A DNA stretch of 64,000 nucleotides from Spirochaetia bacterium (GCA_963677925.2 CAXXYH010000003.1:1184001-1248000); one strand, 5' to 3'; numbered from the stretch's first letter, positions 11,492 to 28,278 are shown. Numbers and translations are program-made. Notes: generated from the letters alone by a model not told the origin.

Positions 11492-11513
11492 TTAAACACC
11501 TGTCCCGATTAAT

Positions 11514-11774
11514 TTAAAAATGCTCTTTGAGAAATTCAAGAACCGTCGCCATAGACACCTTCTCATCACCGCCGTCTACAACCACGGTTATAGTATCATC
11601 TTTTTTCACACCAAGCTTCATGAGTGCAAAAAGTCTATCTGCACCTGCAGTTTTTCCATCAGTCGTTTTTATTGACACCGATGAATCAAGCTGCTTGACA
11701 ACCTTCGCCAGCAAACCTGCCGGCCGGGCATGAATTCCGTTTTCATCTGTTATTATAAATGTTTGTTCTTTCAC
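11514..11774 (-). CDS. ptsH: Phosphocarrier protein HPr (Ser46 position not conserved)
   Basis: GIHARPA His15 motif; ADRLFALM where KSIMGVM/KSLFKL is usual. Confidence 0.95.
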   Translation of the reverse strand: MKEQTFIITDENGIHARPAGLLAKVVKQLDSSVSIKTTDGKTAGADRLFALMKLGVKKDDTITVVVDGGDEKVSMATVLEFLKEHF

Positions 11775-12277
11775 TATCTGTCTCCTGTCTGCTTATCTGA
11801 TTTTTTTACTTTTATCAGATCATCACCTGCTTCAACACTTACTGATTTAACAGACACTACCTCAAGGTAATCTTCAGTATTAACTATCGTAACCGGAGTT
11901 GTAATATCATATCCAAGTTTTTCTATTTTTTTAATATTTATCTTCAGGAGAGGATCCCCAATGTTTACTTTATCTCCTTCTTTTACATAACTTTTAAAAT
12001 GCTTACCCTTTAATTCAACTGTATTCTGTCCAACATGAATTAAAACATCAACGCCATCGTCAGATTTTAATCCAACTGCATGAAAAGTTTCACAAAGGGT
12101 ATCAACAATTCCATTAACAGGTGAAAAAACCTTGTTCCCTGTCGGAATAACTGCTGCTCCCTCACCCATAACCTTTGAAGAAAATGCAGGATCACTAATT
12201 GACTCCAGAGGAACAACCTCGCCCTTAACTGGAGAAGGTATATTTATAATCATTGTATTTTGCATTTCTTTATCCAA
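11774..12277 (-). CDS. crr: PTS glucose-family EIIA
   Basis: DPAFSSKVMGEG, HAVGL, LIHVGQNTVEL. Confidence 0.93.
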   Translation of the reverse strand: MDKEMQNTMIINIPSPVKGEVVPLESISDPAFSSKVMGEGAAVIPTGNKVFSPVNGIVDTLCETFHAVGLKSDDGVDVLIHVGQNTVELKGKHFKSYVKEGDKVNIGDPLLKINIKKIEKLGYDITTPVTIVNTEDYLEVVSVKSVSVEAGDDLIKVKKSDKQTGDR

Positions 12278-12307
12278 AAAACACTCCTATCTTCTGCTGT
12301 ACAATTT

Positions 12308-13162
12308 TCAGGAATTTGAGTTTTTAATTTTTGTATTATTCACCATCCGTTCTATTCCCAGAATCAGGTATAGGCTATCGTCCGAACAAATATTCAAACT
12401 ATATTTATTCTTTACCCAGTCGGATATTTTAATTACAGATTTATAAGCTTCAGGATATTTTTCCCGTAGAATATTCAGAAGTTCATCATCCGAACTTTCA
12501 TTTATACTGCTGCTAATAAGTCTCTGGGCAAAAATTCTTATACTATTCACAAATCGCAAATAACCTACAGAGTCTTCATCCAGTTCAATATTAAAATCAG
12601 CTTTAACCATATCAGTTATTTCACCAATCATTTTAGTCATTTTCATAACATTGGTCATATCAATATCAGTTGAAGCATTTACAAAATGAAGAGCTATAAA
12701 TCCGGCTTCATCAATTTGGAAGTCAAGTCCGGTCTCATGTTTCAAAATATCAACAGCCATAACACCAATCTCAAACTCTTCACGATAATACCTCTTTATA
12801 TCCCACACAAGAGGATTCTGCAGAGTAATACCTTTCTTATAACGTTCAATAGCCATATTTATGTGATCCGACAAGGATACATATATACCATCATTCAGCT
12901 GCTTCCTGAATACATTAACAGCGTATTCAATAATCCGTTCAGTAATAAGAATATATTTCAAAGGTATTTCTGATAAAATTGCCTGAAACTTATCCAGGGA
13001 AATACCATCGGCAATAGTAAATATTTTTTCAACTTTTTCCGGGTCAATCAAATCACCGGCACGCTGCTGAAATCCGAGACCTTTTCCAAGGACAACTACT
13101 TCCCTGTCATTATCGTTCAATGCCACAACAGCATTATTGTTAAGTACCTTTCGTATTTTCAC
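12308..13162 (-). CDS. licT: BglG/LicT family transcriptional antiterminator
   Basis: CAT domain KVLNNN...VLGKGLGF; PRD1 LSDHI and IALHF; PRD2 histidines absent. Confidence 0.95.
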   Translation of the reverse strand: MKIRKVLNNNAVVALNDNDREVVVLGKGLGFQQRAGDLIDPEKVEKIFTIADGISLDKFQAILSEIPLKYILITERIIEYAVNVFRKQLNDGIYVSLSDHINMAIERYKKGITLQNPLVWDIKRYYREEFEIGVMAVDILKHETGLDFQIDEAGFIALHFVNASTDIDMTNVMKMTKMIGEITDMVKADFNIELDEDSVGYLRFVNSIRIFAQRLISSSINESSDDELLNILREKYPEAYKSVIKISDWVKNKYSLNICSDDSLYLILGIERMVNNTKIKNSNS

Positions 13163-13178
13163 CTATTAACCCCAATAT

Positions 13179-13207
13179 GCAGGCCATACAGTTAAAGTAT
13201 GGCCTGC
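13179..13207. terminator. Intergenic stem-loop upstream of licT
   Basis: GCAGGCCATAC-7nt-GTATGGCCTGC; no clear U-tract. Confidence 0.45.
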
Positions 13208-13228
13208 CCAAATAAGTACTTTAAAATT

Positions 13229-14068
13229 CTAATACGCATCACCTAAAATATAATTAACACCCTTTTTAAGTTCACTGATCAGATCTCCTCCTTTACTGGC
13301 ATTGTCCTGATCAATCATAACTCCATACGGAAATAAATCAAGCTCCGATAGAAGTTCCATGACTGAAACATGATCAACAATTCCATCGCCGATACTGCAA
13401 AACGCTTCCTCTTTCTGAACTTCACTATAATTCGAGTTAATATCTTTAAAGTGAACGGCTATTATTCTATCCTTATATTCACGGATAAACTTTACAGGAT
13501 CACCGCCGCCGTACACAGCCCAACCTGTATCAATCTCTGCAGTTACACAGGGCCCGCTTTTTTTCATTATATATTCCATAACACTTATCCTACCATACTC
13601 GGTATCAGCACTGTGGAACTCCATATCATGATTGTGAATACTTAAAGTGATCCCCAATGGATTTAGTTTAAGATTGGCTTCGGTTATATCCAAAGCCAGG
13701 GCTGCAGCCTTATCCAGCTTTAATTCATCAAGCATGGGGCTGAAAATGAAATGCTTAATTCCTGTTTTCTTCGAGACACTCATAAGATCATCTATGCATT
13801 CAACAGCTGTCTTTTCAAGAAAACCGACATGTGCCGATGAAATTTCAAGACCAAGCTTTTTCATTCGCGGCTTCATCTCAAGTATGGTATCTGCCGACCA
13901 GATACAGAACTTCACCCTTCTTGAAGGAATTTCTTCGACTTTTTGCCAGTCGAGCAATACAAAGGGTTCAACCGCACTGAAACCGCAGCGTTTTATATTC
14001 TCCAGAGTTCCCCAGAGATCATCTTTCATTAATAATGCCGGTCCGTATAATCCACAACTTAACTGCAT
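13229..14068 (-). CDS. Sugar phosphate isomerase/epimerase (xylose-isomerase-like TIM barrel)
   Basis: HNHDMEF, EIDTGW, VHFKD, IGDGIVD. Confidence 0.88.
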   Translation of the reverse strand: MQLSCGLYGPALLMKDDLWGTLENIKRCGFSAVEPFVLLDWQKVEEIPSRRVKFCIWSADTILEMKPRMKKLGLEISSAHVGFLEKTAVECIDDLMSVSKKTGIKHFIFSPMLDELKLDKAAALALDITEANLKLNPLGITLSIHNHDMEFHSADTEYGRISVMEYIMKKSGPCVTAEIDTGWAVYGGGDPVKFIREYKDRIIAVHFKDINSNYSEVQKEEAFCSIGDGIVDHVSVMELLSELDLFPYGVMIDQDNASKGGDLISELKKGVNYILGDAY

Positions 14069-14108
14069 TCTGTATTCTCCGGTTTATAATATAACTGCTC
14101 CACCGGCA

Positions 14109-15473
14109 TTAATTACTGCTTTTTACAAGCATTTTGTCATTATAGCCGAAAATGTATGTTGCAGTAAAACTAAGAATCAGTGCAGAAAACATTCCTATAG
14201 CGCCAACACTACCATACATAGCTACAACCGCTGGTAATGTTAAAAGATTTCCAGATAAAAAAGCCGTAGCCAAAGAACCTGCTGTTGCAAGAAGAATCCC
14301 GCTAATTGCATTTGCTACGCATGCTATTACAAACGGTCTTTTATATTTCAAAACAACACCGTATATCGCAGGTTCAGTAACTCCACCCAGAAAAGCAGAA
14401 ATAACTGATGAGCCTGCTATCTGCTTAAGCTCTCGATCTTTGGTTTTAAAAAACACTGCAAGACAGGCTCCGGTTATAGCAAATCCTGTAGCAACTACAA
14501 TTGGCATAAGATTATCATATCCGTAGGCTGCATAATTATTCATCACAATTGGAATTAAACCCCAGTGAAGACCGAAAATGATCATAATCGGCCAGAAAAA
14601 ACCAAGAAGTGCACCTGCAACTGGTGGTGAAAAACCAAGAATTAAATCGATACCCTTTGCAAGATTGGAAGCAAGAATATCCGTAACAGGGCCAATCACT
14701 AAAAATGTCACTGGAAGAATAACAAGCAATGTAATGAAGGGTACCAGTATTCCCTGAATAACCTTCGGTAATACAAGCTTTAAAAGTTTTTCAAACCGGG
14801 ACTGAACATAAACAGCAATAATTACCGGAATTACCGAAGAAGTGTAGCGAATAAGTACAACCGGTATTCCAATGAAGGTTACTTCAGCGCCGCCGGAAGT
14901 AAGTGCAGTAATTGCAGGGTATACAAGGCCGGCTGCAATAGCCATTGAAATGTAGGGATTGGTTTTGAATTTTTTCCCAGCAGTATGCGCTAAAAAGAAT
15001 GGTAGAAAATAAAACACACCATCTGCCGCAGCAAAAAGAATTTTGTATGTAGTGCCCTCATTTGAAAGGATATTCGTAGTTACTAATAAAACAAGAAGAC
15101 CTTTAAGTAAACCTGCTGCCATGAATGCACCCATAAAAGGCATGAATATGCCTGATATGATATCAATTGCCTTTCCAAGAAAACTTTTATGATCGGCCTC
15201 TTCATCATCCCCCCCTAAATTTATAGAGGTTATCTTACCGATCTCTTCATATACATCGCTTACATCAGTACCAATTACTACCTGATACTGACCGCCTGCA
15301 ACAAGAACCTGTATAACTCCGTTAATCTGCTTAAGAGATTCTACGTCAACATTGTCCTTGTCTTTTACTTTAAATCTCAACCTGGTCATACAGTGATTTA
15401 AAGAAATAATATTTTGTTCTTCACCAAGTTCTCTGACAATATCTTTTGCCATTTGATTAAAATTTTTAGCCAC
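14109..15473 (-). CDS. Beta-glucoside PTS EIIBC
   Basis: EIIB HCMTRLRF and QVVIG; EIIC FGLHW and GVTEPAIYGV. Confidence 0.95.
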   Translation of the reverse strand: MAKNFNQMAKDIVRELGEEQNIISLNHCMTRLRFKVKDKDNVDVESLKQINGVIQVLVAGGQYQVVIGTDVSDVYEEIGKITSINLGGDDEEADHKSFLGKAIDIISGIFMPFMGAFMAAGLLKGLLVLLVTTNILSNEGTTYKILFAAADGVFYFLPFFLAHTAGKKFKTNPYISMAIAAGLVYPAITALTSGGAEVTFIGIPVVLIRYTSSVIPVIIAVYVQSRFEKLLKLVLPKVIQGILVPFITLLVILPVTFLVIGPVTDILASNLAKGIDLILGFSPPVAGALLGFFWPIMIIFGLHWGLIPIVMNNYAAYGYDNLMPIVVATGFAITGACLAVFFKTKDRELKQIAGSSVISAFLGGVTEPAIYGVVLKYKRPFVIACVANAISGILLATAGSLATAFLSGNLLTLPAVVAMYGSVGAIGMFSALILSFTATYIFGYNDKMLVKSSN

Positions 15474-15557
15474 AACTACTCCTCCTGTTTTTTTGGTAAT
15501 CAGCTAAATAATAAACTCCATATAAATCGATAAATGCTCCTAAACCTCCTTTTGGAC

Positions 15558-15607
15558 AAAAAAAATAGGCAAGCCGACTTATCCCTGAGGATAAGCAGAC
15601 TTGCCTA
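15558..15607 (-). terminator. LicT-controlled intrinsic terminator overlapping the RAT
   Basis: Minus strand TAGGCAAGTCTGCTTATCC-TCAG-GGATAAGTCGGCTTGCCTA followed by a T-run. Confidence 0.9.
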
Positions 15608-15625
15608 ATTTAATAGTAACAATCT
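15597..15625 (-). promoter_or_regulatory. RAT (ribonucleic antiterminator) site
   Basis: AGATTGTTACTATTAAATTAGGCAAGTCT matches the bgl/lic RAT pattern GGATTGTTACT...CAGGCAAAACC; its 3' half is the 5' arm of the terminator. Confidence 0.9.
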
Positions 15626-15690
15626 CTATTGACTAACAAGCTATCACAACAAAATGATAATGTCTATGCCAAATTATTCGAACACCGGAA

Positions 15691-17133
<1,443 letters not shown>

Positions 17134-17313: not shown

Positions 17314-18204
17314 CTACAGCTTATCAAGATATGCTCTTATTGAATCAATATCATGGTTGACCTGTTGTTTAACTTCTTCAATCGAGTTAAATTTTTTAAC
17401 ACCTCTTATAAATACATGAACCTCAAGACTTATGATCTTTCCATATAAATCACCTGAAAAATCAAGTAAAAATGCTTCAATAGTCAGATAGTCATAATCA
17501 TCTACAGAAGGGCGTTTACCTATATTAGTGAGTCCTTTAACAGCCTTTCCGTCAATATCTGACAGCGTGCCGTAGACACCGTCAGAGGGAAGCTGCTTCC
17601 ATGGCTCAAAACCGATATTTGCAGTCGGCATGCCCACAGTACGCCCGAGAGCTTTTCCATGCATGACTTCACCCATTATAAGATATGGATGGCCAAGCAT
17701 TCTGTTGGCTTGCTCAAGAGAACCTTTGCACAGCACATCAAGTATTCTTTTAGAGGTAAGAGGTTTATTTTCAAACTCAACAGTATCAACTTCTATTAAC
17801 TTAAAACCATACTTTATAGAGCATGATTGAATCAGCTTAATTTGAGGATTCTGCTTCCCTGCAACAATGATTTCTGCCCCGGCAGTTTTACAAAGAAAAT
17901 CATTGATGAAATTTTCAATATCTGTTCCATCAAATTCATATTCTGCTGCAAATGAAATAATCTCATCAAGACCGGAATCTTTGAGTAAGGTATATTTTTC
18001 AAGCTTTGTAGAAAGTATTTTTTGTTTCTCCATAATTTCATCTGGATATTCAAAACAAACTATTGCAGGTTTTAATTTATTACTTTGAGCCAATTCTACA
18101 ACTTTATTTATAACACTCATGTGGCCCTGATGAATTCCATCAAAATCACCAAAAGCAATACATCTATTTTCTGTGCAAATTTCTTTATTGTTCAAAATTC
18201 TCAT
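17314..18204 (-). CDS. RibF-like riboflavin kinase/FAD synthetase paralogue (kinase domain intact, adenylyltransferase domain divergent)
   Basis: GDFDGIHQGH present; GxDFxFG and ISST motifs degenerate (AGKQNPQI, LTSKRI); kinase GRTVGMPTANI, NIGKRPSV, IEAFLLDFSGDLYG. Confidence 0.88.
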   Translation of the reverse strand: MRILNNKEICTENRCIAFGDFDGIHQGHMSVINKVVELAQSNKLKPAIVCFEYPDEIMEKQKILSTKLEKYTLLKDSGLDEIISFAAEYEFDGTDIENFINDFLCKTAGAEIIVAGKQNPQIKLIQSCSIKYGFKLIEVDTVEFENKPLTSKRILDVLCKGSLEQANRMLGHPYLIMGEVMHGKALGRTVGMPTANIGFEPWKQLPSDGVYGTLSDIDGKAVKGLTNIGKRPSVDDYDYLTIEAFLLDFSGDLYGKIISLEVHVFIRGVKKFNSIEEVKQQVNHDIDSIRAYLDKL

Positions 18205-18327
18205 ATCAACTCTTTCAGATAAGATTTCATTTCTTTGGATTATAAAAACAGGAATTAACTCTGTTTAATATTGCAGGTAAATGCAGGGATTTCGAAGAAC
18301 TCCAGCCCTTCGAAATCCGTAAAAGTA

Positions 18328-19683
18328 TTATTTAACCAGGCTTGGAGAACTTTTCCTTGTTCCAATCAGAAAAATAATCATACCAATTGCAAAATATCCG
18401 GCAGTCCAGGCCCATAGCTGCCATCCTCCGGAGACAATTCCCGGGATATATGCACAAATTATTATAACAAATGTTGCTATTGGAAGAAAATTTCCACCTG
18501 GTGCCTTGAATACATCTTTAACATCAGGATTCTTTTTTCGAGCTGCAATGATGGTCAGACATACTATAGCAACAACAATAGCGTTACAAAGCGCACCAAG
18601 ATTGACTATCAGATTCGTAAACTTCGGAAAAGCTGCAACAACACCGACAACCACCATCACAACTATAAGAGAGTTGACCGGCATATTAGTGCTATTGCTC
18701 GTTTTGGCAAAAAACTTTGGAAGGATCCCGCTTTCTGCAGAAGCCTGCAGTGCCCTGGCGGATAATGCTATAACAACAATTATTGTAGTAAGAAGCGCCA
18801 GAACTGCAGATATTGAAATCAGTGGTACAAGCCATGGAATAGATGCAAGCTTCGTAAATGCGGCTGCATAAAGGGGAATATATGCCATACCGGGATTTTC
18901 CTGCAGAAAACCGGAGTTCACCAATCCAAGTGTAGCCAGAATTGTCAGTACATATAAGATTAAAACTACAGTCATTGCAATTGACATTGCCTTTGGAACA
19001 GTTTTATTTGGATTCTTAATTTCACCAACCATAAATGAAACTGAAACTATCGAACCAAATGCAACCATTGCTACTGGAATAGCTCCCATAAATCCAAATG
19101 TTCCTTCAGCTCCCTGAGTGAAAAATGGTTTTAATAAGTTTGAATCCCAATGTCCGGAAAACAGTGCAATACAAATAAATATTACCATTGTTACTGCCAA
19201 ACCAATGGTCAGGCCGGTGTTAATCTTTCCCATAGCCGTTATTTTAACCACGTTTAATATACCGCAGAATAAAACAGCTGCAATTGCCAAAGGCACCTGA
19301 TATGCTCCCAATGCAGGAAAACTTACACCTAGATAAATACTCACGTAAATCGCGGAAAAAGCAGCCCCTGCAATACATCCGAATAGATATGCCCATGAAG
19401 AAATCCAGCCCCATAATTTCCCCTGCTTTTCTGTTTTACCGAGAGACTTGGAGGGAAAAACAAAAATACCGCCTGAGTGCGGAAAAATAGTTGATAATTC
19501 CGCAGTTTGAAGACCATAGGCAAAAAGAATAATTGCAGCGATTATCCATGATAAAATTGCAGCCGGGCCTGCGTTTAAAATTGTAACACCGGATAATGAA
19601 AAGATTGCGCTACCAATCATTCCACCGATCAAGATTGATGAACTGTCCATCAATCCCAGCTTTCCTTGTTCCTTTTTTGACAT
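18328..19683 (-). CDS. APC family permease
   Basis: 12 TM pattern, GMIGSAIF, AELSTIFPHSGG, GEIKNPNKTVPKA. Confidence 0.93.
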   Translation of the reverse strand: MSKKEQGKLGLMDSSSILIGGMIGSAIFSLSGVTILNAGPAAILSWIIAAIILFAYGLQTAELSTIFPHSGGIFVFPSKSLGKTEKQGKLWGWISSWAYLFGCIAGAAFSAIYVSIYLGVSFPALGAYQVPLAIAAVLFCGILNVVKITAMGKINTGLTIGLAVTMVIFICIALFSGHWDSNLLKPFFTQGAEGTFGFMGAIPVAMVAFGSIVSVSFMVGEIKNPNKTVPKAMSIAMTVVLILYVLTILATLGLVNSGFLQENPGMAYIPLYAAAFTKLASIPWLVPLISISAVLALLTTIIVVIALSARALQASAESGILPKFFAKTSNSTNMPVNSLIVVMVVVGVVAAFPKFTNLIVNLGALCNAIVVAIVCLTIIAARKKNPDVKDVFKAPGGNFLPIATFVIIICAYIPGIVSGGWQLWAWTAGYFAIGMIIFLIGTRKSSPSLVK

Positions 19684-19740
19684 ACTAATCTATCCTCCTA
19701 ATCATTCCTTAAAGATTCAACCTGTTTTAAAACAATGTTT

Positions 19741-20772
19741 TTATGTTTCAATTACAATCCTATAAGTAGCCGGATCTATTGCCCGCTCAAAGGCGTAATC
19801 AATATTTGATAACGGAACAACCTCGGAAACAAGTTTCGATGCATCGATTATTCCGAATGAGAGCAGTCTAACTGCTGACATAAAATCCTGTGTGTTTGAA
19901 TTAACTGCACCTGTAATAATCTTTTCTGATGAATGAACTGAATTAACATCCAGTTCTATTGGTTTGCCTTTCGGGAAAGAGGAATACATAACTACAAAGC
20001 CATTATTTCCTGTCATATTGATACTCTGTTCTGCAAGCGATGTTAATGCAGCGGTACAGAACACAACATCCGCCCCCCTTCCATCAGTATATTCCTTGAC
20101 TTTTGCTACAGCATCCTCTTCACGCGAGTTTATAAGAATATCTGCACCCATGAGCTTCGCCATCTCCAGTCGCTTGTCATCAACCTCACAGGCTATAACT
20201 CTGGCACCTTTAAGCTTTGCCAGCTGGATATGGAAAGCACCCATGATCCCGTTTCCAACAACAACTACATCATTTCCAAGCTGTATATTTGCGTTATTAA
20301 TACTGTGTACACAACAGGCTAACGGTTCAGTCAGGGCTGCATATTTTAATTCAAGGTCATCGGAGACTTTGTACAGGGCTTTAGCCTCAATCAGCATGTA
20401 CTCTGCAAATCCGCCGGGACCGCCTACCCCTTCGTGGATATTTGCAATAAAAGCAGTCTCACATTTACTCTCATGACCTGTTCGGCAGTAATAACATTCA
20501 CCACAGGTTGTCAAAATCCTGGCGGCTACCTTGTCACCGATTTTCAGATTCTTAACTTTATCGCCTACCGCTGCAACTGTTCCGGCCGCCTCATGACCTC
20601 CCGCATACGGATATCTCTGAAAAATACCGTTATAGATTCTTTGTTCCAGCGTACAGATAGCGCAGTTGGTGATTTTTACAAGAACCTGCGATCCCTGTGG
20701 TTCCCTGATTTCTTTTTCATCAAAATTGAATTTCTTCACATCTGAATGAATTGCAACTTTGTATGTCTTCAT
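19741..20772 (-). CDS. Zn-dependent MDR polyol/alcohol dehydrogenase
   Basis: AICT...GHE...EP catalytic Zn, CGECYYCRTGHESKC structural Zn, GNGIMG Rossmann motif with acidic CEVD (NAD). Confidence 0.93.
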   Translation of the reverse strand: MKTYKVAIHSDVKKFNFDEKEIREPQGSQVLVKITNCAICTLEQRIYNGIFQRYPYAGGHEAAGTVAAVGDKVKNLKIGDKVAARILTTCGECYYCRTGHESKCETAFIANIHEGVGGPGGFAEYMLIEAKALYKVSDDLELKYAALTEPLACCVHSINNANIQLGNDVVVVGNGIMGAFHIQLAKLKGARVIACEVDDKRLEMAKLMGADILINSREEDAVAKVKEYTDGRGADVVFCTAALTSLAEQSINMTGNNGFVVMYSSFPKGKPIELDVNSVHSSEKIITGAVNSNTQDFMSAVRLLSFGIIDASKLVSEVVPLSNIDYAFERAIDPATYRIVIET

Positions 20773-20780
20773 CTTTTCTC

Positions 20781-21581
20781 CTAGAATTTCTTATTCAACT
20801 CTTTGAGAGCTGCATCAACACTGCAGTTTTCATGTATCATTTTTGCTATAGCACCTGCATATCTGGCAGGATCTTCATGTCCCCAGATATTTCTTCCCAT
20901 AGCTACACCCGCTCCGCCGGCATCAATCGAATCTTTAATTTCTGCGAGAAGTTTCTCTTCCGATACTTTTTTACTGCCCCCGAGAATAACTACCGGAACA
21001 TATACACTTTCACATAACTCATGAAATGTTTCCTGTGACCCCGTATACTCGGTTTTAATGACATCGGCGCCCATCTCAGCACCCATTCTGCAGGCGAAGG
21101 TTATATTCTCCGGAGTACGTGAATCTTCACCTCCCTCGAACCCCCTGGGAAGCATCTCAGCAACAACCGGAACACCCCACTGATCGGCGTCCAGTATATT
21201 TCTTGAAAGGTCATTCAGAATCTGGTCTTCCCATTTGGATCCAGGGAACCCCATGCTGATAACCGCATCAGCCCCAAGTCTTAATGCATCTTCAACTTTA
21301 ACAACAGTCTGCAGAGGCTTTGACTTTGAACCCAAAAATGAACATGAACCATCCAGGCGAAGAATTATCCCCCTGCCGTGAAACTTATCTGCAAATTTAG
21401 CAGCAAGTCCAACGGTAGACAGAAAGGCATCTGCTCCTGCTCTGGCGACTTCACTGATTATTTTTCCAGGTTCTTTCATGGCCGGCAGAACATTGAACAT
21501 ATTGCCATGGTCCATTGCCATGATAAAAACTTTTCTGTCTTCCCTGAATAGATGATTCATACGATGTGTTTTTGTTGACAT
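20781..21581 (-). CDS. Class I DhnA/LsrF-type aldolase
   Basis: AMDHG, ALRLGADA, GADVIKT Schiff-base Lys, ILGG, AMGRNIW phosphate site. Confidence 0.92.
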   Translation of the reverse strand: MSTKTHRMNHLFREDRKVFIMAMDHGNMFNVLPAMKEPGKIISEVARAGADAFLSTVGLAAKFADKFHGRGIILRLDGSCSFLGSKSKPLQTVVKVEDALRLGADAVISMGFPGSKWEDQILNDLSRNILDADQWGVPVVAEMLPRGFEGGEDSRTPENITFACRMGAEMGADVIKTEYTGSQETFHELCESVYVPVVILGGSKKVSEEKLLAEIKDSIDAGGAGVAMGRNIWGHEDPARYAGAIAKMIHENCSVDAALKELNKKF

Positions 21582-21608
21582 ATATATGCTTCCTATTTTT
21601 ATTCAATT

Positions 21609-21659
21609 TTTTTGGGTGTTACATATGCTCACCATGCGATCATTTGTAACACCCAAAAA
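21609..21659. promoter_or_regulatory. Candidate SorC-family operator (15-bp perfect arms, 21-bp spacer)
   Basis: TTTTTGGGTGTTACA-N21-TGTAACACCCAAAAA directly downstream of a predicted -10; A-tract after the stem on both strands argues against a terminator. Confidence 0.7.
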
Positions 21660-21660
21660 C

Positions 21661-21689
21661 AGACTAACACAGCATACCTGAGAAGTAAA
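21661..21689 (-). promoter_or_regulatory. Putative sigma70 promoter of the aldolase operon
   Basis: TTTACT-N17-TAGTCT with TG extension. Confidence 0.55.
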
Positions 21690-21773
21690 GCTTTTTAAGA
21701 AAAAATTTAAAGATTTATAACCTGGTTTTTTAAAGGGAGGGTTGCTGCTAAATATCCGGACAAAGAAAAGATT

Positions 21774-22703
21774 TTATTTTTTTAAATTTCGATGGACTGC
21801 AGCAGCAGTAATGGAATCTGTAACTAGTATATTTATCAGGTTTCCGCGTATAGCACCTGTGATAGCAGAAATTTTCTTTTCACCGCCGGCGATACCAATC
21901 CTGATAGGAATGTTTTTATAACTTTCCAAATCTATCGCAAATACCCGGCCGTTAAGATCACTCTGAATAACATTACCTTTATCATCAAAAAAGTGGGTAC
22001 ACACTTCACCAACTACATTTTTATCTTTTAAAGATTTTTTTTCCTGTTCCGACAGAAAATCTTCCTGTATGAACGAAGATTCCTCGGACATATCACCAAG
22101 GCCGACTACCGCAACAGTACAATTCTTCATTTTGTCATATACCTGAGCAAAAAAACTTTCTTTCAGCATTGAATCTCTGAGCTGCTTATTTTCGACAATA
22201 ATGGGAGCATACATAAAATATGGTGTTGCATCCAGGACTTCTGAAGACTGTCGTACGATGTCATCTGAATTTACATTTGACTCCCTGGCATTCAAACCGC
22301 CTACCAGTTGTGTAACAATCAGGTTCTTTTTATCAGATTTTTCTAAATTAGCTACAGCTGAAGAAAGGGCTCTGCCCCTGGAAAAACCAATAATATCATT
22401 ATCATTAATAATCCTGTCCAGATAAGCTGCAGCAGCAAGTCCGAGTGAGTTGTTTATGTCCTCGTCACAATTTAGAATTATTGCTTCGTTTAGACCCGAG
22501 CATGTCTCGAATTCAGTTTCATATTCAATATTTCGATCTTCAATATCCTGAATTACAATTTTAACAATACCTTTATCTAAACAATATTTTAATATCCGAT
22601 TAACTCTTTGTCTGGATGTCAGCATTTTCTTGGCAATTTCATTCTGAGTCATGCCTTTCCTGTAATAATAATGAGCAACCTTGATATATTCGTTAAGATT
22701 CAT
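21774..22703 (-). CDS. SorC/DeoR(Bs)/LsrR family sugar-phosphate-binding regulator
   Basis: AHYYY...MTQNEIAKKMLTSRQRVNRIL HTH, GFSRGRAL, QLVGG, AGGEKK, LVTD; start 22703 from RBS. Confidence 0.93.
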   Translation of the reverse strand: MNLNEYIKVAHYYYRKGMTQNEIAKKMLTSRQRVNRILKYCLDKGIVKIVIQDIEDRNIEYETEFETCSGLNEAIILNCDEDINNSLGLAAAAYLDRIINDNDIIGFSRGRALSSAVANLEKSDKKNLIVTQLVGGLNARESNVNSDDIVRQSSEVLDATPYFMYAPIIVENKQLRDSMLKESFFAQVYDKMKNCTVAVVGLGDMSEESSFIQEDFLSEQEKKSLKDKNVVGEVCTHFFDDKGNVIQSDLNGRVFAIDLESYKNIPIRIGIAGGEKKISAITGAIRGNLINILVTDSITAAAVHRNLKK

Positions 22704-22819
22704 AAATGTTCCTACCAGATTATACAATATCATTAATTTATTTTGTAAACTATATAAAATTATGTACTGTTGGGGAACGGAGTTGATGACGGTTCTTAAA
22801 TTATCAGCGCTATTGAATT

Positions 22820-23280: not shown

Positions 23281-23696
23281 ATGCTGTTGTATGAAGAATT
23301 ATCAAATAAAATTGTAGGGGCTTTTTTCAGGGTTCATAATGAACTGGGTCCGGGTTTGCTTGAATCATGCTATCATTATTGTTTTGCCTAAAGCAAAACA
23401 ATTAGAAGTTTTCAAAGAAAACTTCACATGCTCTTTACATTGAACTGAAAATCACCGGATTAAATGTTGTCTATAATGCCCCACTTAATGTGCATTACCG
23501 GGGTGAAGTTGTCGGTGAGTTTTTCTCAGACCTTGTGGTTAATAACAATATCATCATTGAAATCAAATCTGTTCAGGCGCTTTCATCTGCGCATGAAGCA
23601 CAGCTAATTAATTATTTACGCATAAGTAAGCTTAAGGTCGGTTATCTTGTTAATTTTCAGGGTTCAAGGGTTGTATTTAAGCGGTTTGTGGTTTGA
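23281..23696 (+). pseudogene. GxxExxY family PD-(D/E)XK protein, copy 1, interrupted by a 50-bp insertion
   Basis: MLLYEELSNKIVGAFFRVHNELGPGLLESCYH, insertion 23377-23426 with in-frame TAA, then HALYIEL...DLVVNNNIIIEIKSV...HEAQLINYL...GYLVNF; removing 50 bp restores the frame. Confidence 0.9.
23377..23426 (+). mobile_element. 50-bp twin-hairpin mini-element E1
   Basis: ATTGTTTTGC-CTAAA-GCAAAACAAT followed by GAAGTTTTC-AAA-GAAAACTTC. Confidence 0.75.
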
Positions 23697-23745
23697 TAAA
23701 CCGAAGTCAAAGATTAATAGTAATCGTGGTATAATCACGGTATAT

Positions 23746-24396
23746 ATGAAACGTTCAATTAAACATAGTAATATTCCGGAACAAGATTCGATGACTTCAA
23801 AGTTTTATGAAGAGAGGGCATCCATGCTAGCACTTGAGTATGCTGAAGCAGCCCCCGGTTTTACTGAAATCTTTAAAATACTCTTACCTGAAAATTCCGC
23901 AATACTCGATGCAGGCTGCGGGTCCGGGCGTGATCTTGCATCCCTTTCTGAATCCGGTTTTAACGTGACAGGGGCTGACTCTTCATCTGAGATGATAACA
24001 GCAGCAGAGAAGATGTATCCGCAACTCAAAGGCAGACTTAAACAGGCAGTATTACCTCTTCTTACCGGCATAACCGGCAGGTTCGACGGGATTCTATGCT
24101 CCGGAGTTCTTCAGCACATCCAAGATAAATATATACATGAGTGCTTCAGCACATTCAGCAGATTTCTACTACCCGGCGGGATATGTCTTGTAAGTTTTCC
24201 CGTCACCTACCCGGACATCCATCCCCATACAAAGCGTGATATAAATGGAAGGTTATTTATTATCCGCACGGGGGAACATTACAAAGAGTTCGCATCCGTA
24301 TACGGATTGATACTCAAAGAGCAGATTTTCAATCAGGATTCACTCGGGCGACCGGGAACCAGCTGGGGGTTGCATGTTTATCAAAAGAAGGGATAG
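23746..24396 (+). CDS. Class I SAM-dependent methyltransferase (start 23746 or 23791)
   Basis: ILDAGCGSGRD, VTGADSS, FDGILCSGVLQH, LLPGG; no DNA-MTase DPPY/PC motif. Confidence 0.88.
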   Translation: MKRSIKHSNIPEQDSMTSKFYEERASMLALEYAEAAPGFTEIFKILLPENSAILDAGCGSGRDLASLSESGFNVTGADSSSEMITAAEKMYPQLKGRLKQAVLPLLTGITGRFDGILCSGVLQHIQDKYIHECFSTFSRFLLPGGICLVSFPVTYPDIHPHTKRDINGRLFIIRTGEHYKEFASVYGLILKEQIFNQDSLGRPGTSWGLHVYQKKG

Positions 24397-24399
24397 AAA

Positions 24400-25500
24400 A
24401 TGAAGTTTGAAGATAGAATCATACTTCCGGAATCAGATCTTTCGATTTCAAAGCTGGTTCAGGCTTTATCCCCTCAATATCTTACAGCAAGCTATAAGCT
24501 GTACTGGCTGCTTGGCATTCTCGACATCATCAAAGACTTTCCATCAGAAAGATCCATAAATATTGAATTTGATGATGTAATTAGAAGAATGATAGCACTC
24601 AGCTGGTACACAATACTTGAATACAGGCTTAATTTCGGAGCATCAGACACACTGGAAAAGGCTGTGCATTATATAGAAAGCAACACTGAACTTAACAGAA
24701 ATAGCTGTAAAAAAGAAATAGTAGAACTTCTTGAAAACTCTGCTGATTCAAAAATAATTGAAATTATACACAGCTTCAGCAAATATGTGCCCTACCGGTT
24801 TCTCACAACCTTCATCCCTAAACTGAACGGCATTCCGGATCATAAAAGAAATTCTGTAATTGAAGAAGCCTCAAAAACCACTCCTGATATTCCTTATGCA
24901 ATTTCAGGTAAAACATGTGTAATGGATCTTAAATGGCTTGAATACCTATATCTGAATAATTCAATAATTAAGGGCTGGGTCCAATACAAACTTGTTTCTT
25001 TTCTTCAGGCTAGAAATCCCAATGTTCCGGCAATAACAGAAAAGTTTGAAGCGCCTCATCAAAGAAACCTTGAAGCAGCACGGAAATACTGGACTGAGTA
25101 TATTTCCTTTAATGATTCAAGAGATATTTTCAGTCATCAGCCAATGAGGGCAACTGAAATAAGCATAGATCATTTTGTACCCTGGAGCTTTGTACTACAT
25201 GACAGAATCTGGAACCTCGCACCCACAAGCCGTGAATTAAACTCCAGTAAAAGCAATCATCTACCTATGTGGGAAAAATATTTCAAGTCATTTGCGGAAC
25301 TGCAGTTCAGGGCATTCAAATGGCATAGTAATAAAACCCCTTCCTCAAAAGTATTGGAAGATTTCATCTTAATAAAACCAGGTATAGCAGGCACTGATAT
25401 AAGCAGAGAATCATTTTTCAGTATTCTGGAAAACACTCTTCAACCGGCTTATCGTATAGCTGCCAATCAAGGTTTTAGTGTTTGGGAAAATAAAGGTTAG
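24400..25500 (+). CDS. HNH endonuclease with N-terminal putative DNA-recognition domain
   Basis: TASYKLYWLLGIL N-terminus; SIDHFVPWSFV...IWNL...LNSSKSNHLP HNH motif. Confidence 0.88.
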   Translation: MKFEDRIILPESDLSISKLVQALSPQYLTASYKLYWLLGILDIIKDFPSERSINIEFDDVIRRMIALSWYTILEYRLNFGASDTLEKAVHYIESNTELNRNSCKKEIVELLENSADSKIIEIIHSFSKYVPYRFLTTFIPKLNGIPDHKRNSVIEEASKTTPDIPYAISGKTCVMDLKWLEYLYLNNSIIKGWVQYKLVSFLQARNPNVPAITEKFEAPHQRNLEAARKYWTEYISFNDSRDIFSHQPMRATEISIDHFVPWSFVLHDRIWNLAPTSRELNSSKSNHLPMWEKYFKSFAELQFRAFKWHSNKTPSSKVLEDFILIKPGIAGTDISRESFFSILENTLQPAYRIAANQGFSVWENKG

Positions 25501-25523
25501 CATTATTAAATATATTTATCTTA

Positions 25524-28268
25524 TCATTTACAGATTTCTTTTAATTTACTAACAAGCTTTTCTCTTTCACCACTTTCATTAGTTTTAAATCTTAGTATAG
25601 GTATACCATATATATCTAAAATTCTATCTTTCATTCTATCGCGCTCAGCCTGCCTAGACCCCTTTTTATGAAACTTATACCCATCCACCTCAATAGCGAG
25701 TATAGATTTTTTGCTAATTTTATTGTAAAGCAAGAAATCAAGATGAGTTGAACTATGCATAGCATAATTTTTTTCTTCACTACTTAAGGGCATAGTATCC
25801 CGAATCAACATATTTAATTGCTGATGGCAAATAACATCACAATTTAAATAGTTATTTTCGTTTATTACATCCAAAATTAATGAATACATTAAATTTTCAG
25901 AATCATATTCTGATATTCTTTTTTTATTTTTCAAGTAACTAATACGTTTTTTAGTATATTGCTGATATAAAAGATCAAAAACTGAATAAATAGTACTTTC
26001 ATTCATGCTTAGGTTATTATATTCAATATAGCCTATCAAATCATTTATATTGCTATCTGAAGACAGTTTGTTTCCTGAAGTAACAACACATAGATTCTTT
26101 TTAGCTCTAGAGATCGCAACATTCAATAAGTATGGATTATCAGAAAAATCCGTTACCTTATCATCTACAGAACTGATTATGATAGAATCTTTTTCTCTAC
26201 CCTGGAATTTATGCACAGTCGCAATATCTATCTTAATATCTGAAAAACTTTGTTTTAATGCAGAGACTTGACTTCTGTAAGGGGCTATTATACCTATATC
26301 TTTATTCGGATAATTATTATACGGTAGAATTTCATGCTTAATAACGTCTATTTGTCGTTGATTCATTAAGCCTCTTTGGTGATTTCCAATTACAGTTTTA
26401 TAAACTGAAACCACATTCTCTTCATCATTATCTTTTGTCATTATTAATAACTTTCCATCATAAAATTTTTGATTACAAAAGTTAATTATTTTAGGATGGC
26501 ATCTGTAATGTTCTCGAAGAAGCGTCTCTGGAATATCTGTTATAATTTCACATACAGACTTCAAGAAGCTATTTTCTATAAAATTATAACCAGAGTTTAT
26601 ATTAAAACTATTAAAAATTGAAGAAAGTTTTGATTTTTCACTTTCAGATATTACATTTGGAAGCTGTTTCAAATCGCCAACAATAACAGCATTTTGTGCA
26701 CAGGATAAAGCTAAAGCACCTGTCGCAATATCAACCTGCGAAGCTTCATCCATTATTAGATAATCATATTCTGCACTTGAAGATAAACTACTCCTCGAAG
26801 AGTAGGTGGTACTTAAAACAATTGGGTATTCGTTAATAAAACTCTTTGGATATTTCCATAGGTCCTCCACAGAAAACCTTTTTCTTTGGGATTTCTTTCC
26901 ATACTTTTCAAATAAAAGAGATCTAAGATATTTCATAGACATCTCTGTTAACTCTTTTAATAGTTTTTTTTCATTCCGCATTTCAAGCGCTTTCTTATAT
27001 TTATAGATACTTAAATTAAGTTCATTAATCTTATTTGTATAGAAAAGGAACTGCAGTAGTCTCGAAATTTTATTTATACCATTCTTATAAAATTTCCAAT
27101 TCGCAATTCCATAAATGTAACAACATCTAATTTTAAAATAAAAAGATGGAGATCTACCTTTTTCTGAATACTTTTCACATTTATGTAGTAATTCAAATAA
27201 AATCTGACTATCAAGAGGTATCTTTACCTTTGTTTCATTTAAAATGGTTCCAGATTCTTTTAAAAATCTTTTAAAATGAGAAAATTCTAAATTTACGTCT
27301 GATAACTTTTGACTATCATAAGCAAGTAACTCATTGAGATGAAAAATTTCATTTAGTTCAGTTGAGCTTTTATGAATTTCCTTAATAAGTTCTCCTCCTC
27401 GAGCCGATTCCAAACCCCAGTCTTTTATCACTGTTGGATATTCACCAGTCTGCCTATTTATGAACTGTGTTTTATTATTTGAATTTCCGAGAGGAGCTAC
27501 AAGAAAATCTAAAAGATATTCAGGAGAAGACAGTTTATCTAAGATATTTTCTATAGCAGAGTTATTATTTGATACAACTTGTACTGTTTTTTCTGAAATT
27601 AGTAGGTTTGCTATTATATTTAAAATCGTTTGTGTTTTTCCAGTACCAGGTGGTCCTTGAATCACACTTATCTGAGAAGATAACGCATTTGTTACTGCTT
27701 TAAATTGACTAGCATTACACCCAAAAGGGAAAATGGGTATATTAAATTTTAGTTTTTTTATTAAAAATTTTTCCGGATTTAAATAAATATTTAATACTTT
27801 GTTTTTTTCTATTGTCTTTATTTTTTCATAATGCTTGGAAAGAATTTTTGTGCCATCTTCAGCTCTAAGACTTACTAAATCTGATATTCTAGTAAGATAA
27901 TTAAGTACACAACTTTGCTTTTCATCATTTAAAATATTTTTAATTATTGAAATATCTTCACCATGGAAATCTACAAAATGCTTATTCTTAAAATAAATAT
28001 GATAATAGGAGAACTGCTTTCCATCGTTAAAGACATACACTGCTTCAATATCTTTAAGTTCCTTACCAAAGTGTTTAAATTGGTAGTTATCTGGATTTAA
28101 AATAATAGGATTCCTAAGCCAATTCACATGTTCTGCTCTATATGTATAAGCTTTACCCTCCTTAAATTTTATTATAAATTTTGATTTTTCTGGAAGATAA
28201 TTACAAAATAAGACTTCTGGTGTAACTATTCTTCCCTTTGCTATAATCATATTTTGTCTTAAATCCAT
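25524..28268 (-). CDS. Upf1/Dna2-like SF1 helicase with C-terminal DUF2726 (Vsr-like) nuclease domain
   Basis: QGPPGTGKT, DEASQ, VGDLKQLP, HYRCHPKII, IIAPYRSQ, TVHKFQGREKD, NVAISRAK; HLDFLL...IEVDG...H...RDRMKD...GIPILRF. Confidence 0.9.
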   Translation of the reverse strand: MDLRQNMIIAKGRIVTPEVLFCNYLPEKSKFIIKFKEGKAYTYRAEHVNWLRNPIILNPDNYQFKHFGKELKDIEAVYVFNDGKQFSYYHIYFKNKHFVDFHGEDISIIKNILNDEKQSCVLNYLTRISDLVSLRAEDGTKILSKHYEKIKTIEKNKVLNIYLNPEKFLIKKLKFNIPIFPFGCNASQFKAVTNALSSQISVIQGPPGTGKTQTILNIIANLLISEKTVQVVSNNNSAIENILDKLSSPEYLLDFLVAPLGNSNNKTQFINRQTGEYPTVIKDWGLESARGGELIKEIHKSSTELNEIFHLNELLAYDSQKLSDVNLEFSHFKRFLKESGTILNETKVKIPLDSQILFELLHKCEKYSEKGRSPSFYFKIRCCYIYGIANWKFYKNGINKISRLLQFLFYTNKINELNLSIYKYKKALEMRNEKKLLKELTEMSMKYLRSLLFEKYGKKSQRKRFSVEDLWKYPKSFINEYPIVLSTTYSSRSSLSSSAEYDYLIMDEASQVDIATGALALSCAQNAVIVGDLKQLPNVISESEKSKLSSIFNSFNINSGYNFIENSFLKSVCEIITDIPETLLREHYRCHPKIINFCNQKFYDGKLLIMTKDNDEENVVSVYKTVIGNHQRGLMNQRQIDVIKHEILPYNNYPNKDIGIIAPYRSQVSALKQSFSDIKIDIATVHKFQGREKDSIIISSVDDKVTDFSDNPYLLNVAISRAKKNLCVVTSGNKLSSDSNINDLIGYIEYNNLSMNESTIYSVFDLLYQQYTKKRISYLKNKKRISEYDSENLMYSLILDVINENNYLNCDVICHQQLNMLIRDTMPLSSEEKNYAMHSSTHLDFLLYNKISKKSILAIEVDGYKFHKKGSRQAERDRMKDRILDIYGIPILRFKTNESGEREKLVSKLKEICK

Positions 28269-28278
28269 CGTACTTCTT

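Follow-up and report, generated by a model that had tools for sequence, protein, structure and literature searches.

The closest described system is the flavin-induced neighbourhood (fin) cluster known from Clostridium scindens and Faecalicatena fissicatena (PMC13492142, J Bacteriol 2026), summarised here from the parts of that article available to us. The cluster comprises the permeases finA/F, a RibF (finB), a class I aldolase (finC), a Zn alcohol dehydrogenase (finD), and a sugar-binding regulator (finE); genomes with homologues of finB, finC, finD, and finE are called fin+. The long variant also has finG, finH, and finI (aldehyde dehydrogenase and glycine-reductase-like genes), which are missing from the short variant. 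The latter is found in F. fissicatena, an anaerobe reported to form hydroxyethylflavin. The neighbourhood of C. scindens is induced at 17.5 µM riboflavin relative to 0.13 µM. This bacterium is a riboflavin auxotroph that consumes riboflavin, and its product is lumichrome. B. coccoides has fin homologues and shows no response to riboflavin. On transcriptomic and comparative evidence, the authors propose that finBCD act on the phosphorylated side chain and set free a triose (PMC13492142). We found no enzyme assay of any fin-cluster enzyme in the literature searched.

Aerobic riboflavin catabolism depends on the flavin monooxygenase RcaE, described in Microbacterium maritypicum and Devosia riboflavina (PMC13492142; PMC12746152). 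This route resembles the fin proposal in removing the ribityl chain, but it needs O2, yields ribose and lumichrome, and involves neither phosphorylation nor an aldolase.

The Lsr system for autoinducer-2 combines the SorC-family regulator LsrR, the kinase LsrK, and LsrF, a DhnA-family enzyme that releases dihydroxyacetone phosphate (DHAP) from a phosphorylated keto compound.

The spirochaete locus and the short fin cluster

We analysed a 64-kb stretch of a Spirochaetia genome (the window). The five co-oriented genes described in the initial annotation are present there as five intact ORFs, all on the minus strand (Table 1), and separated by 192, 8, 57, and 123 nt in the order from regulator to RibF. 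The regulator has an alternative start at Met11 (22703), which is the end coordinate of the initial annotation and likely the true start. The 192-nt spacer is probably the promoter/operator of the aldolase-dehydrogenase-permease-RibF unit. A promoter consensus scan returned 21 sites, against 26.8 expected from shuffled sequence; given this lack of excess, none was assigned. The operon is flanked on one side by a beta-glucoside operon and on the other by ORFs of 249 aa, 366 aa, and 921 aa, the last being helicase-like. The two absences claimed for the operon held: Pfam and NCBIfam place none of the five genes in a sugar-kinase family, and at Rfam gathering thresholds no FMN riboswitch was found in the window, where the sole match is a tRNA (33798-33871).

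Table 1. Genes and leading spacer of the operon, in window positions.
Feature	Position	Strand	Basis
SorC/DeoR-family regulator (finE-like)	21774-22733	-	HTH + Sugar-bind PF04198, 226 bits
Regulator-aldolase spacer, 192 nt	21582-21773	-	Gene coordinates
DeoC/LacD-family (DhnA-type) class I aldolase, finC-like	20781-21581	-	Pfam DeoC, 128 bits
Zn-dependent MDR dehydrogenase, finD-like	19741-20772	-	Pfam ADH_N 92 bits, ADH_zinc_N 83.5 bits
APC-superfamily permease, finA/F-like	18328-19683	-	Pfam AA_permease_2, 164 bits
RibF, finB subfamily	17314-18204	-	Pfam Flavokinase 124 bits, FAD_syn 77 bits

A genome of F. fissicatena encodes homologues of all five genes in one cluster, with identities of 44% (SorC), 68% (aldolase), 60% (dehydrogenase), 56% (permease), and 43% (RibF); the permease compared is the one directly upstream of the F. 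fissicatena RibF. The homologues of finB, finC, finD, and finE are adjacent in the window, and homologues of finG, finH, and finI are absent from the cluster and its flanks. By sequence comparison, the operon is thus orthologous to the short fin cluster and matches it gene for gene in all five components. It differs from the fin clusters of Lachnospiraceae in its host, a Spirochaetia genome, and in its gene order, which is co-oriented with the regulator first. The nearest relatives of its genes are in Clostridia other than Lachnospiraceae (aldolase 82-88% and RibF 53-58% identical). Unlike C. scindens, described as an auxotroph, the host is predicted to be prototrophic for riboflavin.

The initial annotation had referred to a report of a similar neighbourhood in Lachnospiraceae. 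This report exists, with the same gene set and the same proposed mechanism (PMC13492142). The APC-type carrier, put forward as a new aspect, is not one: the same permease sits in Lachnospiraceae clusters, and the available parts of the article simply call it "permease". The spirochaete host is a new aspect compared with that survey, which covered Lachnospiraceae and Bacteroidales and does not mention spirochaetes.

The locus shares with Lsr a SorC-family regulator, a kinase, and a DhnA-family enzyme, and its aldolase also matches LsrF structures. Yet, the kinase is a RibF where LsrK is of the FGGY type, a dehydrogenase stands in place of the isomerase LsrG, and the LPRGFE loop of the aldolase subfamily is absent from LsrF. 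The regulator and the aldolase score 133 and 135 bits with the LsrR and LsrF models, far below the cut-offs of 486 and 297.

Ancestry and conservation of the gene set

In the trees, the genes of the operon fall among Clostridia. The RibF belongs to a clade of 21 sequences (SH-aLRT 95) comprising 19 Bacillota, the window, and a sister genome (L007). On these sequence phylogenies, the operon is shown to be of foreign, clostridial ancestry.

We searched for RibF-anchored loci using two peptide patterns and kept the best 80 of 186, from 80 species. Aldolase, dehydrogenase, and permease accompany RibF in 50 of these best 80 loci, across two phyla, and 44 of the 50 complete clusters also encode a SorC homologue. 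Since the same genes recur together so often, their arrangement in the window is not due to chance. Full flanks are available for 55 loci, of which 40 carry the complete set, 10 lack any partner gene, and four have the permease only. In 59 of the 61 loci with a permease, this gene immediately precedes RibF in the same orientation, at a gap of 31-331 nt. Genomes retrieved by the scan include those of F. fissicatena, Muricomes intestini, Mediterraneibacter hominis, and Blautia, in all of which the same genes are clustered.

Within the class, we surveyed 151 genomes, each at least 90% complete, and six of them encode the window type of aldolase (at least 66% identity). All six have a flavokinase no more than about 3.5 kb from the aldolase gene on its contig, although three of these clusters have no permease at all; only four of the other 145 genomes have a flavokinase. 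In both surveys RibF is strongly conserved with the other four genes, so that a lack of such conservation, named initially as a ground for refuting the joint pathway, does not apply. A single clade for the six spirochaete RibFs was rejected by the AU test (p = 1.7e-13), as was one clade of the window pair with L030 and L034 (p = 7e-5), these groups having been chosen after the tree had been seen.

In a metagenome scan of 80 aldolase-anchored loci, 37 have RibF, 27 are too short to tell, and 16 have room for it and lack it (one type with a PTS, two with ABC transporters, and the locus L116). The RibF-less aldolases are 64-74% identical to that of the window, a range overlapping that of the Lachnospiraceae fin aldolases (60-70%). 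In one locus (L127), a complete mannose-type PTS with HPr and enzyme I replaces the permease and the kinase, which fits a need for a phosphorylated substrate. No kinase was seen near the aldolase-dehydrogenase pair in the ABC-transporter variants. The pair is not specific to flavins, as it is also found beside PTS or ABC transporters where RibF is missing.

Protein families and the proposed pathway

The RibF of the window has the two-domain architecture of the bifunctional RibF/FAD synthetases of C. ammoniagenes and T. maritima. Its kinase domain aligns throughout with its PDB matches (1mrz, 3op1, and 2x0k) and covers positions 1-124 of the 124 of Pfam Flavokinase. The segment GRTVGMPTAN, including the PTAN loop, is conserved, and so are the kinase motifs across the finB subfamily. 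The other domain departs from the bifunctional enzymes in lacking the complete set of what we take to be the bacterial adenylyltransferase motifs (HxGH, GxDFxFG, and SSTxIR). HxGH is present, within FGDFDGIHQGH, while the positions of the two others read AGKQNPQ and TSKRIL (AGxxDxNI and VTSERI across the subfamily). The initial description of an intact kinase thus stands, and that of eroded adenylyltransferase motifs stands for two of the three. Mean identity to the 50 cluster-linked relatives is 30% in the N-terminal domain and 62% in the kinase domain, i.e., the former evolves about twice as fast. The 13 differences between the RibFs of the window and of the sister genome are all in residues 41-159, and the kinase domains are identical. 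The protein scores below every NCBIfam RibF equivalog cut-off (207.8 vs 241 for NF004162, 182.0 vs 184.35 for TIGR00083). Unlike the genes for bifunctional enzymes, its gene lies inside a catabolic-type operon and not beside truB.

The regulator matches positions 6-255 of the 257 of PF04198, and its N-terminal HTH is matched too; its NCBIfam scores (DeoR 220 bits, LsrR 133 bits) are below the cut-offs. The aldolase also falls short of its NCBIfam models: NF005556 is the best (222.7 vs 241), followed by ADH synthase (197.6 vs 299) and archaeal FBP aldolase (165.7 vs 430). Its nearest solved structures are MJ0400 (2qjg), the T. tenax FBP aldolase (1ojx), and LsrF. K176 (in GADVIKTEYTG) and D24 (in MDHG) align with the Schiff-base Lys and Asp of MJ0400 and of the T. 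tenax enzyme, and are invariant in the 32 subfamily sequences. The loop before PRG is different. It is WSYPRG in wild-type 1ojx and MMYPRG in MJ0400, and the tyrosine of each (Tyr146 in T. tenax, that of MYPRG in MJ0400) is presumably catalytic; the subfamily has E-A/M-L-PRGFE. T. tenax W144 and Y146 correspond to E142 and L144 of the window aldolase, both invariant, so that Leu replaces throughout the subfamily the tyrosine expected of class I aldolases of the archaeal/DhnA type.

In the dehydrogenase, C40, H60, E61, and E149, then C90, C93, C96, and C104, and finally G173, G175, and G178 are invariant among 31 members; we take these to be the catalytic zinc ligands, the structural four-cysteine zinc site, and the GxGxxG dinucleotide fold. 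Its PDB neighbours are generic Zn-dependent dehydrogenases, and all its NCBIfam equivalogs are below cut-off. The same applies to the equivalogs of the permease, which matches only APC-superfamily models in Pfam and NCBIfam. Known riboflavin transporters include RibU, RibM/PnuX, RibN, RfuABCD, and other families.

We favour, with moderate confidence, the view that the operon belongs to the short type of fin cluster and is a horizontally acquired module that strips three carbons from the flavin ribityl chain under anoxic conditions. The APC permease is a predicted flavin carrier that would bring riboflavin in or let a flavin product out. The kinase domain of RibF would convert riboflavin to FMN, and the adenylyltransferase-like domain is probably inactive, so that FMN would not be drained to FAD. 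The finD-like, NAD-dependent dehydrogenase is predicted to act on FMN at the 4'-OH, whose oxidation would give a 4'-keto chain similar to a ketose 1-phosphate. The finC-like aldolase would then form a Schiff base via Lys176 and cleave C2'-C3', with the predicted release of DHAP and 10-formylmethylflavin. This dehydrogenase, or a different one, may then reduce the aldehyde to 10-hydroxyethylflavin, which would render the sequence redox-neutral. The SorC regulator would sense a phosphorylated intermediate. As there are no finG, finH, or finI homologues in the cluster, the pathway is expected to end at formylmethyl- or hydroxyethylflavin rather than at lumichrome. We infer this chemistry, 4'-oxidation followed by retro-aldol cleavage to DHAP and formylmethylflavin, as the available text of PMC13492142 also does. 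Some observations count against the proposal: the Leu at the position of the T. tenax catalytic tyrosine, the non-response of B. coccoides and the lumichrome produced by C. scindens (PMC13492142), and the possibility that the window RibF, the sole Pfam flavokinase beside a riboswitch-controlled rib operon, is a housekeeping gene.

Flavin genes of the host and alternative roles

The genome has a complete rib operon under FMN riboswitch control, and its bearer is a predicted riboflavin prototroph. A housekeeping ribF-like gene is located between truB and rpsO. Its product has canonical adenylyltransferase motifs (LGKDHKLG and SSTRIR), but its C-terminal kinase barrel is trimmed and lacks the PTAN loop. 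The RibF of the operon is the only Pfam flavokinase match in the genome. The term "paralogue" used initially therefore calls for a qualification: a second ribF-like gene exists, but with a trimmed kinase domain. For the same reason, the objection that the window gene might be the only ribF is formally half borne out. It is weakened by the absence of any flavokinase domain from 141 of the 151 genomes of the class (10 have one).

The same enzymes might serve homeostasis, disposing of surplus or reduced flavin (directed overflow) with a permease that exports the product, rather than feeding on external riboflavin. This role was put forward in PMC13492142, which notes in its available parts that finA/F are predicted permeases. 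We regard it as doubtful, if credible. With a riboswitch-controlled operon for making riboflavin itself, the host need not import any. In one genome (G008), a lumazine synthase gene lies at 2.4 kb from the cluster, which adjoins an Fe-type alcohol dehydrogenase. On the other hand, the present data fit import and export alike, and a sugar-phosphate-sensing regulator of the SorC family together with a first-step kinase is typical of catabolic operons, the layout found here.

Alternatively, two modules might travel together, with permease-RibF devoted to flavin salvage or trapping, the aldolase-dehydrogenase pair acting on an unrelated sugar or polyol phosphate, and RibF being also the only riboflavin kinase of the cell. 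Some loci do encode SorC, permease, and RibF while neither aldolase nor dehydrogenase lies within 10 kb (L045 and L054, whose flanks are full, and L038, whose contig is 9 kb long), only permease and RibF are found in L042 and L086, the pair occurs with PTS or ABC transporters where RibF is absent, and the host is a predicted prototroph with a sole flavokinase. Yet, the aldolase-dehydrogenase-permease-RibF order is tight (gaps of 8-123 nt) and recurs in 50 of the 80 species retained, in two phyla, and the kinase accompanies the aldolase in all six class genomes, including the three with permease-less clusters. Furthermore, the aldolase and dehydrogenase genes of C. scindens are inside the riboflavin-induced neighbourhood (PMC13492142, available parts), and most genomes of the class do without a flavokinase domain. 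We thus find this reading unlikely. That the same chemistry acts on another ribityl substrate phosphorylated by RibF (deazaflavin FO, roseoflavin, aminoriboflavin, or ribityl-lumazine), an option that the initial annotation also left open, is very unlikely: the RibF subfamily is distinct from housekeeping RibFs and under all NCBIfam RibF equivalog cut-offs, and several loci are, by their contig names, from bioreactor or fermentation metagenomes where methanogen deazaflavins could occur, but the kinase motifs are canonical and highly conserved, and the C. scindens neighbourhood responds to riboflavin itself, which is consumed (PMC13492142, available parts).

The preferred degradative role may coexist with a second one. 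Since the kinase barrel is trimmed in the truB-linked RibF native to the class, the horizontally acquired fin RibF may be the only working riboflavin kinase of the host. We tentatively raise, as possible rather than probable, a joint reading in which it is so, the permease-RibF pair is a new APC-based system for flavin uptake by phosphorylation, and SorC is a protein-based FMN sensor operating beside the FMN riboswitch. The permease-RibF pair also occurs without the aldolase. If this reading is true, cofactor synthesis from the rib operon of the host would depend on a gene from a degradation island. As for the fin-type degradation itself, its occurrence in this genome would extend a known yet still unproven anaerobic pathway of vitamin B2 breakdown to a new bacterial phylum.

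A candidate flavin-degradation cluster in a spirochaete

The initial annotation described five co-oriented genes with neither a sugar kinase nor an FMN riboswitch. All five are intact minus-strand ORFs with assigned Pfam families, scoring far above the gathering thresholds. None of the five is a sugar kinase, and no FMN riboswitch was matched in the window, where the sole Rfam match is one tRNA. No cluster gene reached the cut-off of an NCBIfam equivalog model, which sets all five apart from the ordinary members of named isofunctional families. The intergenic gaps, from regulator to RibF, are 192, 8, 57 and 123 nt. A promoter scan gave sites no commoner than in shuffled sequence, and we therefore left regulatory sites unassigned; no terminator was found 3' of RibF. 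A search for sequencing runs gave five, of which three cover the stretch wholly or in part and none is recorded as RNA.

Coordinates of the cluster genes, their surroundings and the loci compared with them
Feature	Location	Strand	Remarks
SorC/DeoR-type regulator	window 21774-22733	minus	intact ORF; start probably Met11, at 22703
DeoC/LacD-family (DhnA-type) class I aldolase	window 20781-21581	minus	intact ORF
Zn-dependent medium-chain dehydrogenase	window 19741-20772	minus	intact ORF
APC-superfamily permease	window 18328-19683	minus	intact ORF
RibF	window 17314-18204	minus	intact ORF
Beta-glucoside set	window 12308-17112	minus	
Xylose-isomerase-like TIM-barrel gene	window 13229-14068		inside the beta-glucoside operon
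ORFs of 249, 366 and 921 aa	window 23647-28289		G+C 0.27-0.30
FAD_syn-domain gene between truB and rpsO	G000:C1:37619-38401 (L002 1213-1998)	minus	same genome
DhnA-type aldolase paralogue	G000:C3:1783843-1784619		same genome
Aldolase locus with PTS	L127 3111-11979		without RibF
Aldolase locus with ABC sugar transporter	L144 4360-10867		without RibF
Aldolase locus with ABC transporter genes	L150 982-8358		without RibF
Truncated cluster RibF	L181 (G012:C14) about 5817-6107		match to residues 200-296 only
RibF and following genes	L004 (G008:C3) 10456-13302		other genus of the family

A beta-glucoside set (GH1 6-phospho-beta-glucosidase, PTS EIIBC, TIM-barrel protein and LicT) starts 201 nt downstream of RibF. 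Elsewhere this set is not conserved alongside the cluster, and we rejected GH1, PTS EIIBC and LicT as parts of the unit: GH1 occurred, as a weak match of 22%, at one of the best 80 of 186 RibF loci. The TIM-barrel gene inside this operon is unusual, and kinship with the TIM-barrel gene of L150 was rejected (BLASTP E = 0.19). Judging from its ORFs and composition, the segment beside the cluster may be a mobile or defence island; its 249-aa ORF has a SAM-methyltransferase-like motif by eye and its 921-aa ORF is helicase-like. The aldolase paralogue in the same genome is distant (40% identity).

The RibF had been described as an intact kinase with an eroded adenylyltransferase. Its kinase domain is canonical and two motifs of the N-terminal domain are missing, as claimed, but the HxGH motif is kept. 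Mean identity to 50 cluster-linked relatives (from the best 80 of 186 loci) is 62% in the kinase domain versus 30% in the N-terminal domain, and all 13 differences from the RibF of the sister genome fall within residues 41-159. The kinase domain is thus under strong constraint and the adenylyltransferase domain in decay, a pattern that fits selection for making FMN, not FAD. The aldolase is closest to MJ0400, the T. tenax FBP aldolase and LsrF, and retains the Schiff-base lysine (Lys176) as well as the aspartate. Before the PRG loop an invariant Leu144 stands in place of the tyrosine, with an invariant Glu142 two residues earlier, making this a distinct subfamily. In the dehydrogenase every zinc ligand is present and the fold is of the NAD type; from a general rule, we take the enzyme's cofactor preference to be for NAD.

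Gut and rumen anaerobes have long been reported to convert riboflavin to formylmethyl- and hydroxyethylflavin. To our knowledge, no genes were attached to those reports before the description of the fin cluster in 2026. According to that paper, Clostridium scindens converts riboflavin anaerobically to lumichrome and one neighbourhood, finA-K, is induced by high riboflavin (PMC13492142). There, finA and finF are permeases, finB a RibF homologue, finC a class I aldolase, finD a Zn alcohol dehydrogenase and finE a sugar-binding regulator; the long form also carries genes for an aldehyde dehydrogenase and two glycine-reductase-like proteins, and the short form is that of Faecalicatena fissicatena, an anaerobe reported in 1970 to make hydroxyethylflavin (PMC13492142). 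This is the Lachnospiraceae neighbourhood of aldolase, oxidoreductase and riboflavin kinase that the initial annotation had correctly pointed to. Its authors propose that finBCD release a triose (PMC13492142). Their mechanism is the one put forward for the window's operon, in which riboflavin would be phosphorylated to FMN, oxidised to a 4'-keto chain and cleaved to DHAP and formylmethylflavin. Full-text literature searches found no enzymology of an anaerobic flavin-degradation pathway.

Conservation of the neighbourhood and its modules

Relatives of the window's RibF number more than 100 at 48-62% identity, and those with names are nearly all Clostridia. We scanned for RibF loci with a subfamily alignment and two peptide patterns, taking one genome per species, and studied the best 80 of 186 loci; genes were called at 50% query coverage and 35% identity or above. 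Flanks were counted as full when they reached at least 6 kb upstream of RibF and 3 kb beyond it downstream, as in 55 of the 80. The co-conservation implied by the initial annotation holds: RibF, aldolase, dehydrogenase and permease were found together at 50 of these 80 loci (40 of the 55 with full flanks), and SorC completed the set at 44. RibF with aldolase and dehydrogenase but no permease occurred once (a full-flank locus). Eleven loci had the permease as the only partner (four full-flank, seven short-flank) and 18 had none of the three (ten full-flank, eight short-flank). In 59 of 61 loci from this set, the gene immediately upstream of RibF, and in the same orientation, is the permease. 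Permease and RibF form a core pair. Among the 80, truB adjoins RibF in only two loci, L082 and L085, and canonical adenylyltransferase motifs are confined to the same two. Loci L038, L045 and L054 (Oscillospiraceae), L042 and L086 have either SorC, permease and RibF or just permease and RibF, their flanks lacking aldolase and dehydrogenase; such loci may be stand-alone units of flavin uptake and phosphorylation.

The best 80 of 186 loci included F. fissicatena, Muricomes intestini, Mediterraneibacter hominis, Blautia producta and a near-identical "Spirochaetia bacterium" genome. The fin paper lists the first three species as carrying fin; the Blautia it names is B. coccoides (PMC13492142). F. 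fissicatena has clustered homologues of all five window genes, with identities of 44% (SorC), 68% (aldolase), 60% (dehydrogenase), 56% (permease) and 43% (RibF).

For the reverse test, metagenome contigs were scanned with an aldolase alignment, giving 80 loci. RibF was present at 37; the contig ended too early at 27, and 16 had room for RibF but lacked it. These 16 represent few lineages. In L127, a complete mannose-type PTS, HPr, enzyme I and a sigma-54/PRD activator surround the aldolase-dehydrogenase pair. A tight group of near-identical contigs has a divergent ABC sugar transporter; in L150 the neighbours are ABC transporter genes and a TIM-barrel gene. At L127, L144 and L150 the aldolase is 64-67% identical to the window's. 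L116, a single contig, has an aldolase identical to that of Lutispora, which has RibF. Hence aldolase and dehydrogenase make up a portable module that in most cases accompanies permease and RibF but also occurs with PTS or ABC transporters. The PTS variant fits the need for a phosphorylated substrate; the ABC variants, in which no kinase was seen, do not support it. Metagenome contigs L121-L126 have the order RibF-aldolase-dehydrogenase and lack the permease. In L123 the gene after the dehydrogenase encodes an alpha/beta hydrolase, and the opposite strand carries sulfite-reductase-like and Fe-S genes upstream.

Entry into spirochaetes and the flavokinase of the host class

Among the listed loci, the window's genes find their best matches in non-Lachnospiraceae Clostridia, at identities of 82-88% (aldolase), 74-77% (permease), 66-76% (dehydrogenase), 60-68% (SorC) and 53-58% (RibF). 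In a quick maximum-likelihood tree, its RibF falls in a supported clade of 21 sequences where it and the sister genome's copy (L007) are the only spirochaetes, the other 19 being Bacillota. The remaining spirochaete copies are placed elsewhere in this tree. With groups chosen after inspection of the tree, AU tests rejected monophyly both of the six spirochaete copies together (p = 1.7e-13) and of a group joining the window's pair to L030 and to L034, which belongs to the same family (p = 7e-5). The cluster has entered spirochaetes more than once and is found in at least four of their families. The aldolase-dehydrogenase stretch has a G+C of 0.44-0.45, versus 0.34-0.36 in one flank and 0.27-0.30 in the other, a weak sign of foreign origin.

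We then sampled 151 genomes of the class, each at least 90% complete; the host's order holds the window's own family alone, and an order-level search added nothing. A Pfam flavokinase domain of any kind occurs in only ten of the 151. The aldolase type (at least 66% identity) occurs in six, from four families (G000, G002, G008, G012, G022 and G028). In all six, the contig with the aldolase also has a flavokinase match no more than about 3.5 kb away; being kin, these genomes are not independent and represent at least four or five lineages. In a class normally without recognisable riboflavin kinase, the kinase appears mostly as part of the cluster. Three of the six clusters are aldolase-dehydrogenase-SorC-RibF without permease, with RibF truncated in one. 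In the G012 cluster an in-frame TAG was flagged in RibF, which is probably a decaying gene. In G008, the gene after RibF encodes an Fe-type alcohol dehydrogenase of 403 aa, which could be the aldehyde reductase step; beyond it lie a short ORF resembling a lipoprotein and a lone gene for lumazine synthase.

A check for a separate housekeeping ribF gave a divided answer. A second FAD_syn-domain gene does lie between truB and rpsO; its products in the host's family have 261-268 aa and canonical adenylyltransferase motifs, invariant across the family. But the window's RibF is the sole flavokinase match in this 99.6%-complete genome, which also has no match to the archaeal CTP-dependent riboflavin kinase (PF01982). 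The host needs a riboflavin kinase from somewhere, since about 800 kb from the cluster it has a complete rib operon (ribD, ribE, ribBA, ribH) preceded by an FMN riboswitch. In the truB-linked protein, the C-terminal 75-95 residues gave no flavokinase match even at E <= 10, and the PTAN loop is missing from them. The protein's AlphaFold model (pLDDT 93, pTM 0.88) matches full-length bifunctional FAD synthetases (query-normalised TM-scores 0.74-0.83), which makes its C-terminal part a trimmed kinase-type barrel. The relative G003 (97% complete) has lumazine synthase and no flavokinase match, and complete relatives without the cluster have neither. Either the trimmed domain or another enzyme may be the kinase of the class, the window's RibF being dedicated to the cluster, or the window's RibF may do double duty. 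The literature takes the spirochaete enzyme TP0888 to be bifunctional (PMC3573665).

A wider range for the candidate pathway

The finding is real and the proposed interpretation reasonable, with the chemistry inferred from sequence. By itself the cluster opens no new question. The same system and proposed mechanism were described in 2026 (PMC13492142). The fin survey covered 792 Lachnospiraceae and 1,291 Bacteroidales genomes, and the paper makes no mention of spirochaetes (PMC13492142), in line with the suggestion that a spirochaete host would be new. Lutispora saccharofermentans and Alkaliphilus peptidifermentans are examples of cultured hosts outside the Lachnospiraceae whose enzymes would allow the chemistry to be tested, and the comparative rules (core pair, portable module, constrained kinase) sharpen the choice of proteins to purify. 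The candidate pathway is no peculiarity of Lachnospiraceae: among the best 80 of 186 loci the gene set occurs in Clostridiaceae, Lutisporaceae, Christensenellaceae, Oscillospiraceae, Peptococcaceae and Vallitaleaceae. New are the phylum, the breadth over clostridial families and the repeated transfer into spirochaetes. So are the pairing of permease and RibF as a core, the modular behaviour of aldolase and dehydrogenase, and the peculiar state of the flavin kinase in the host's class.
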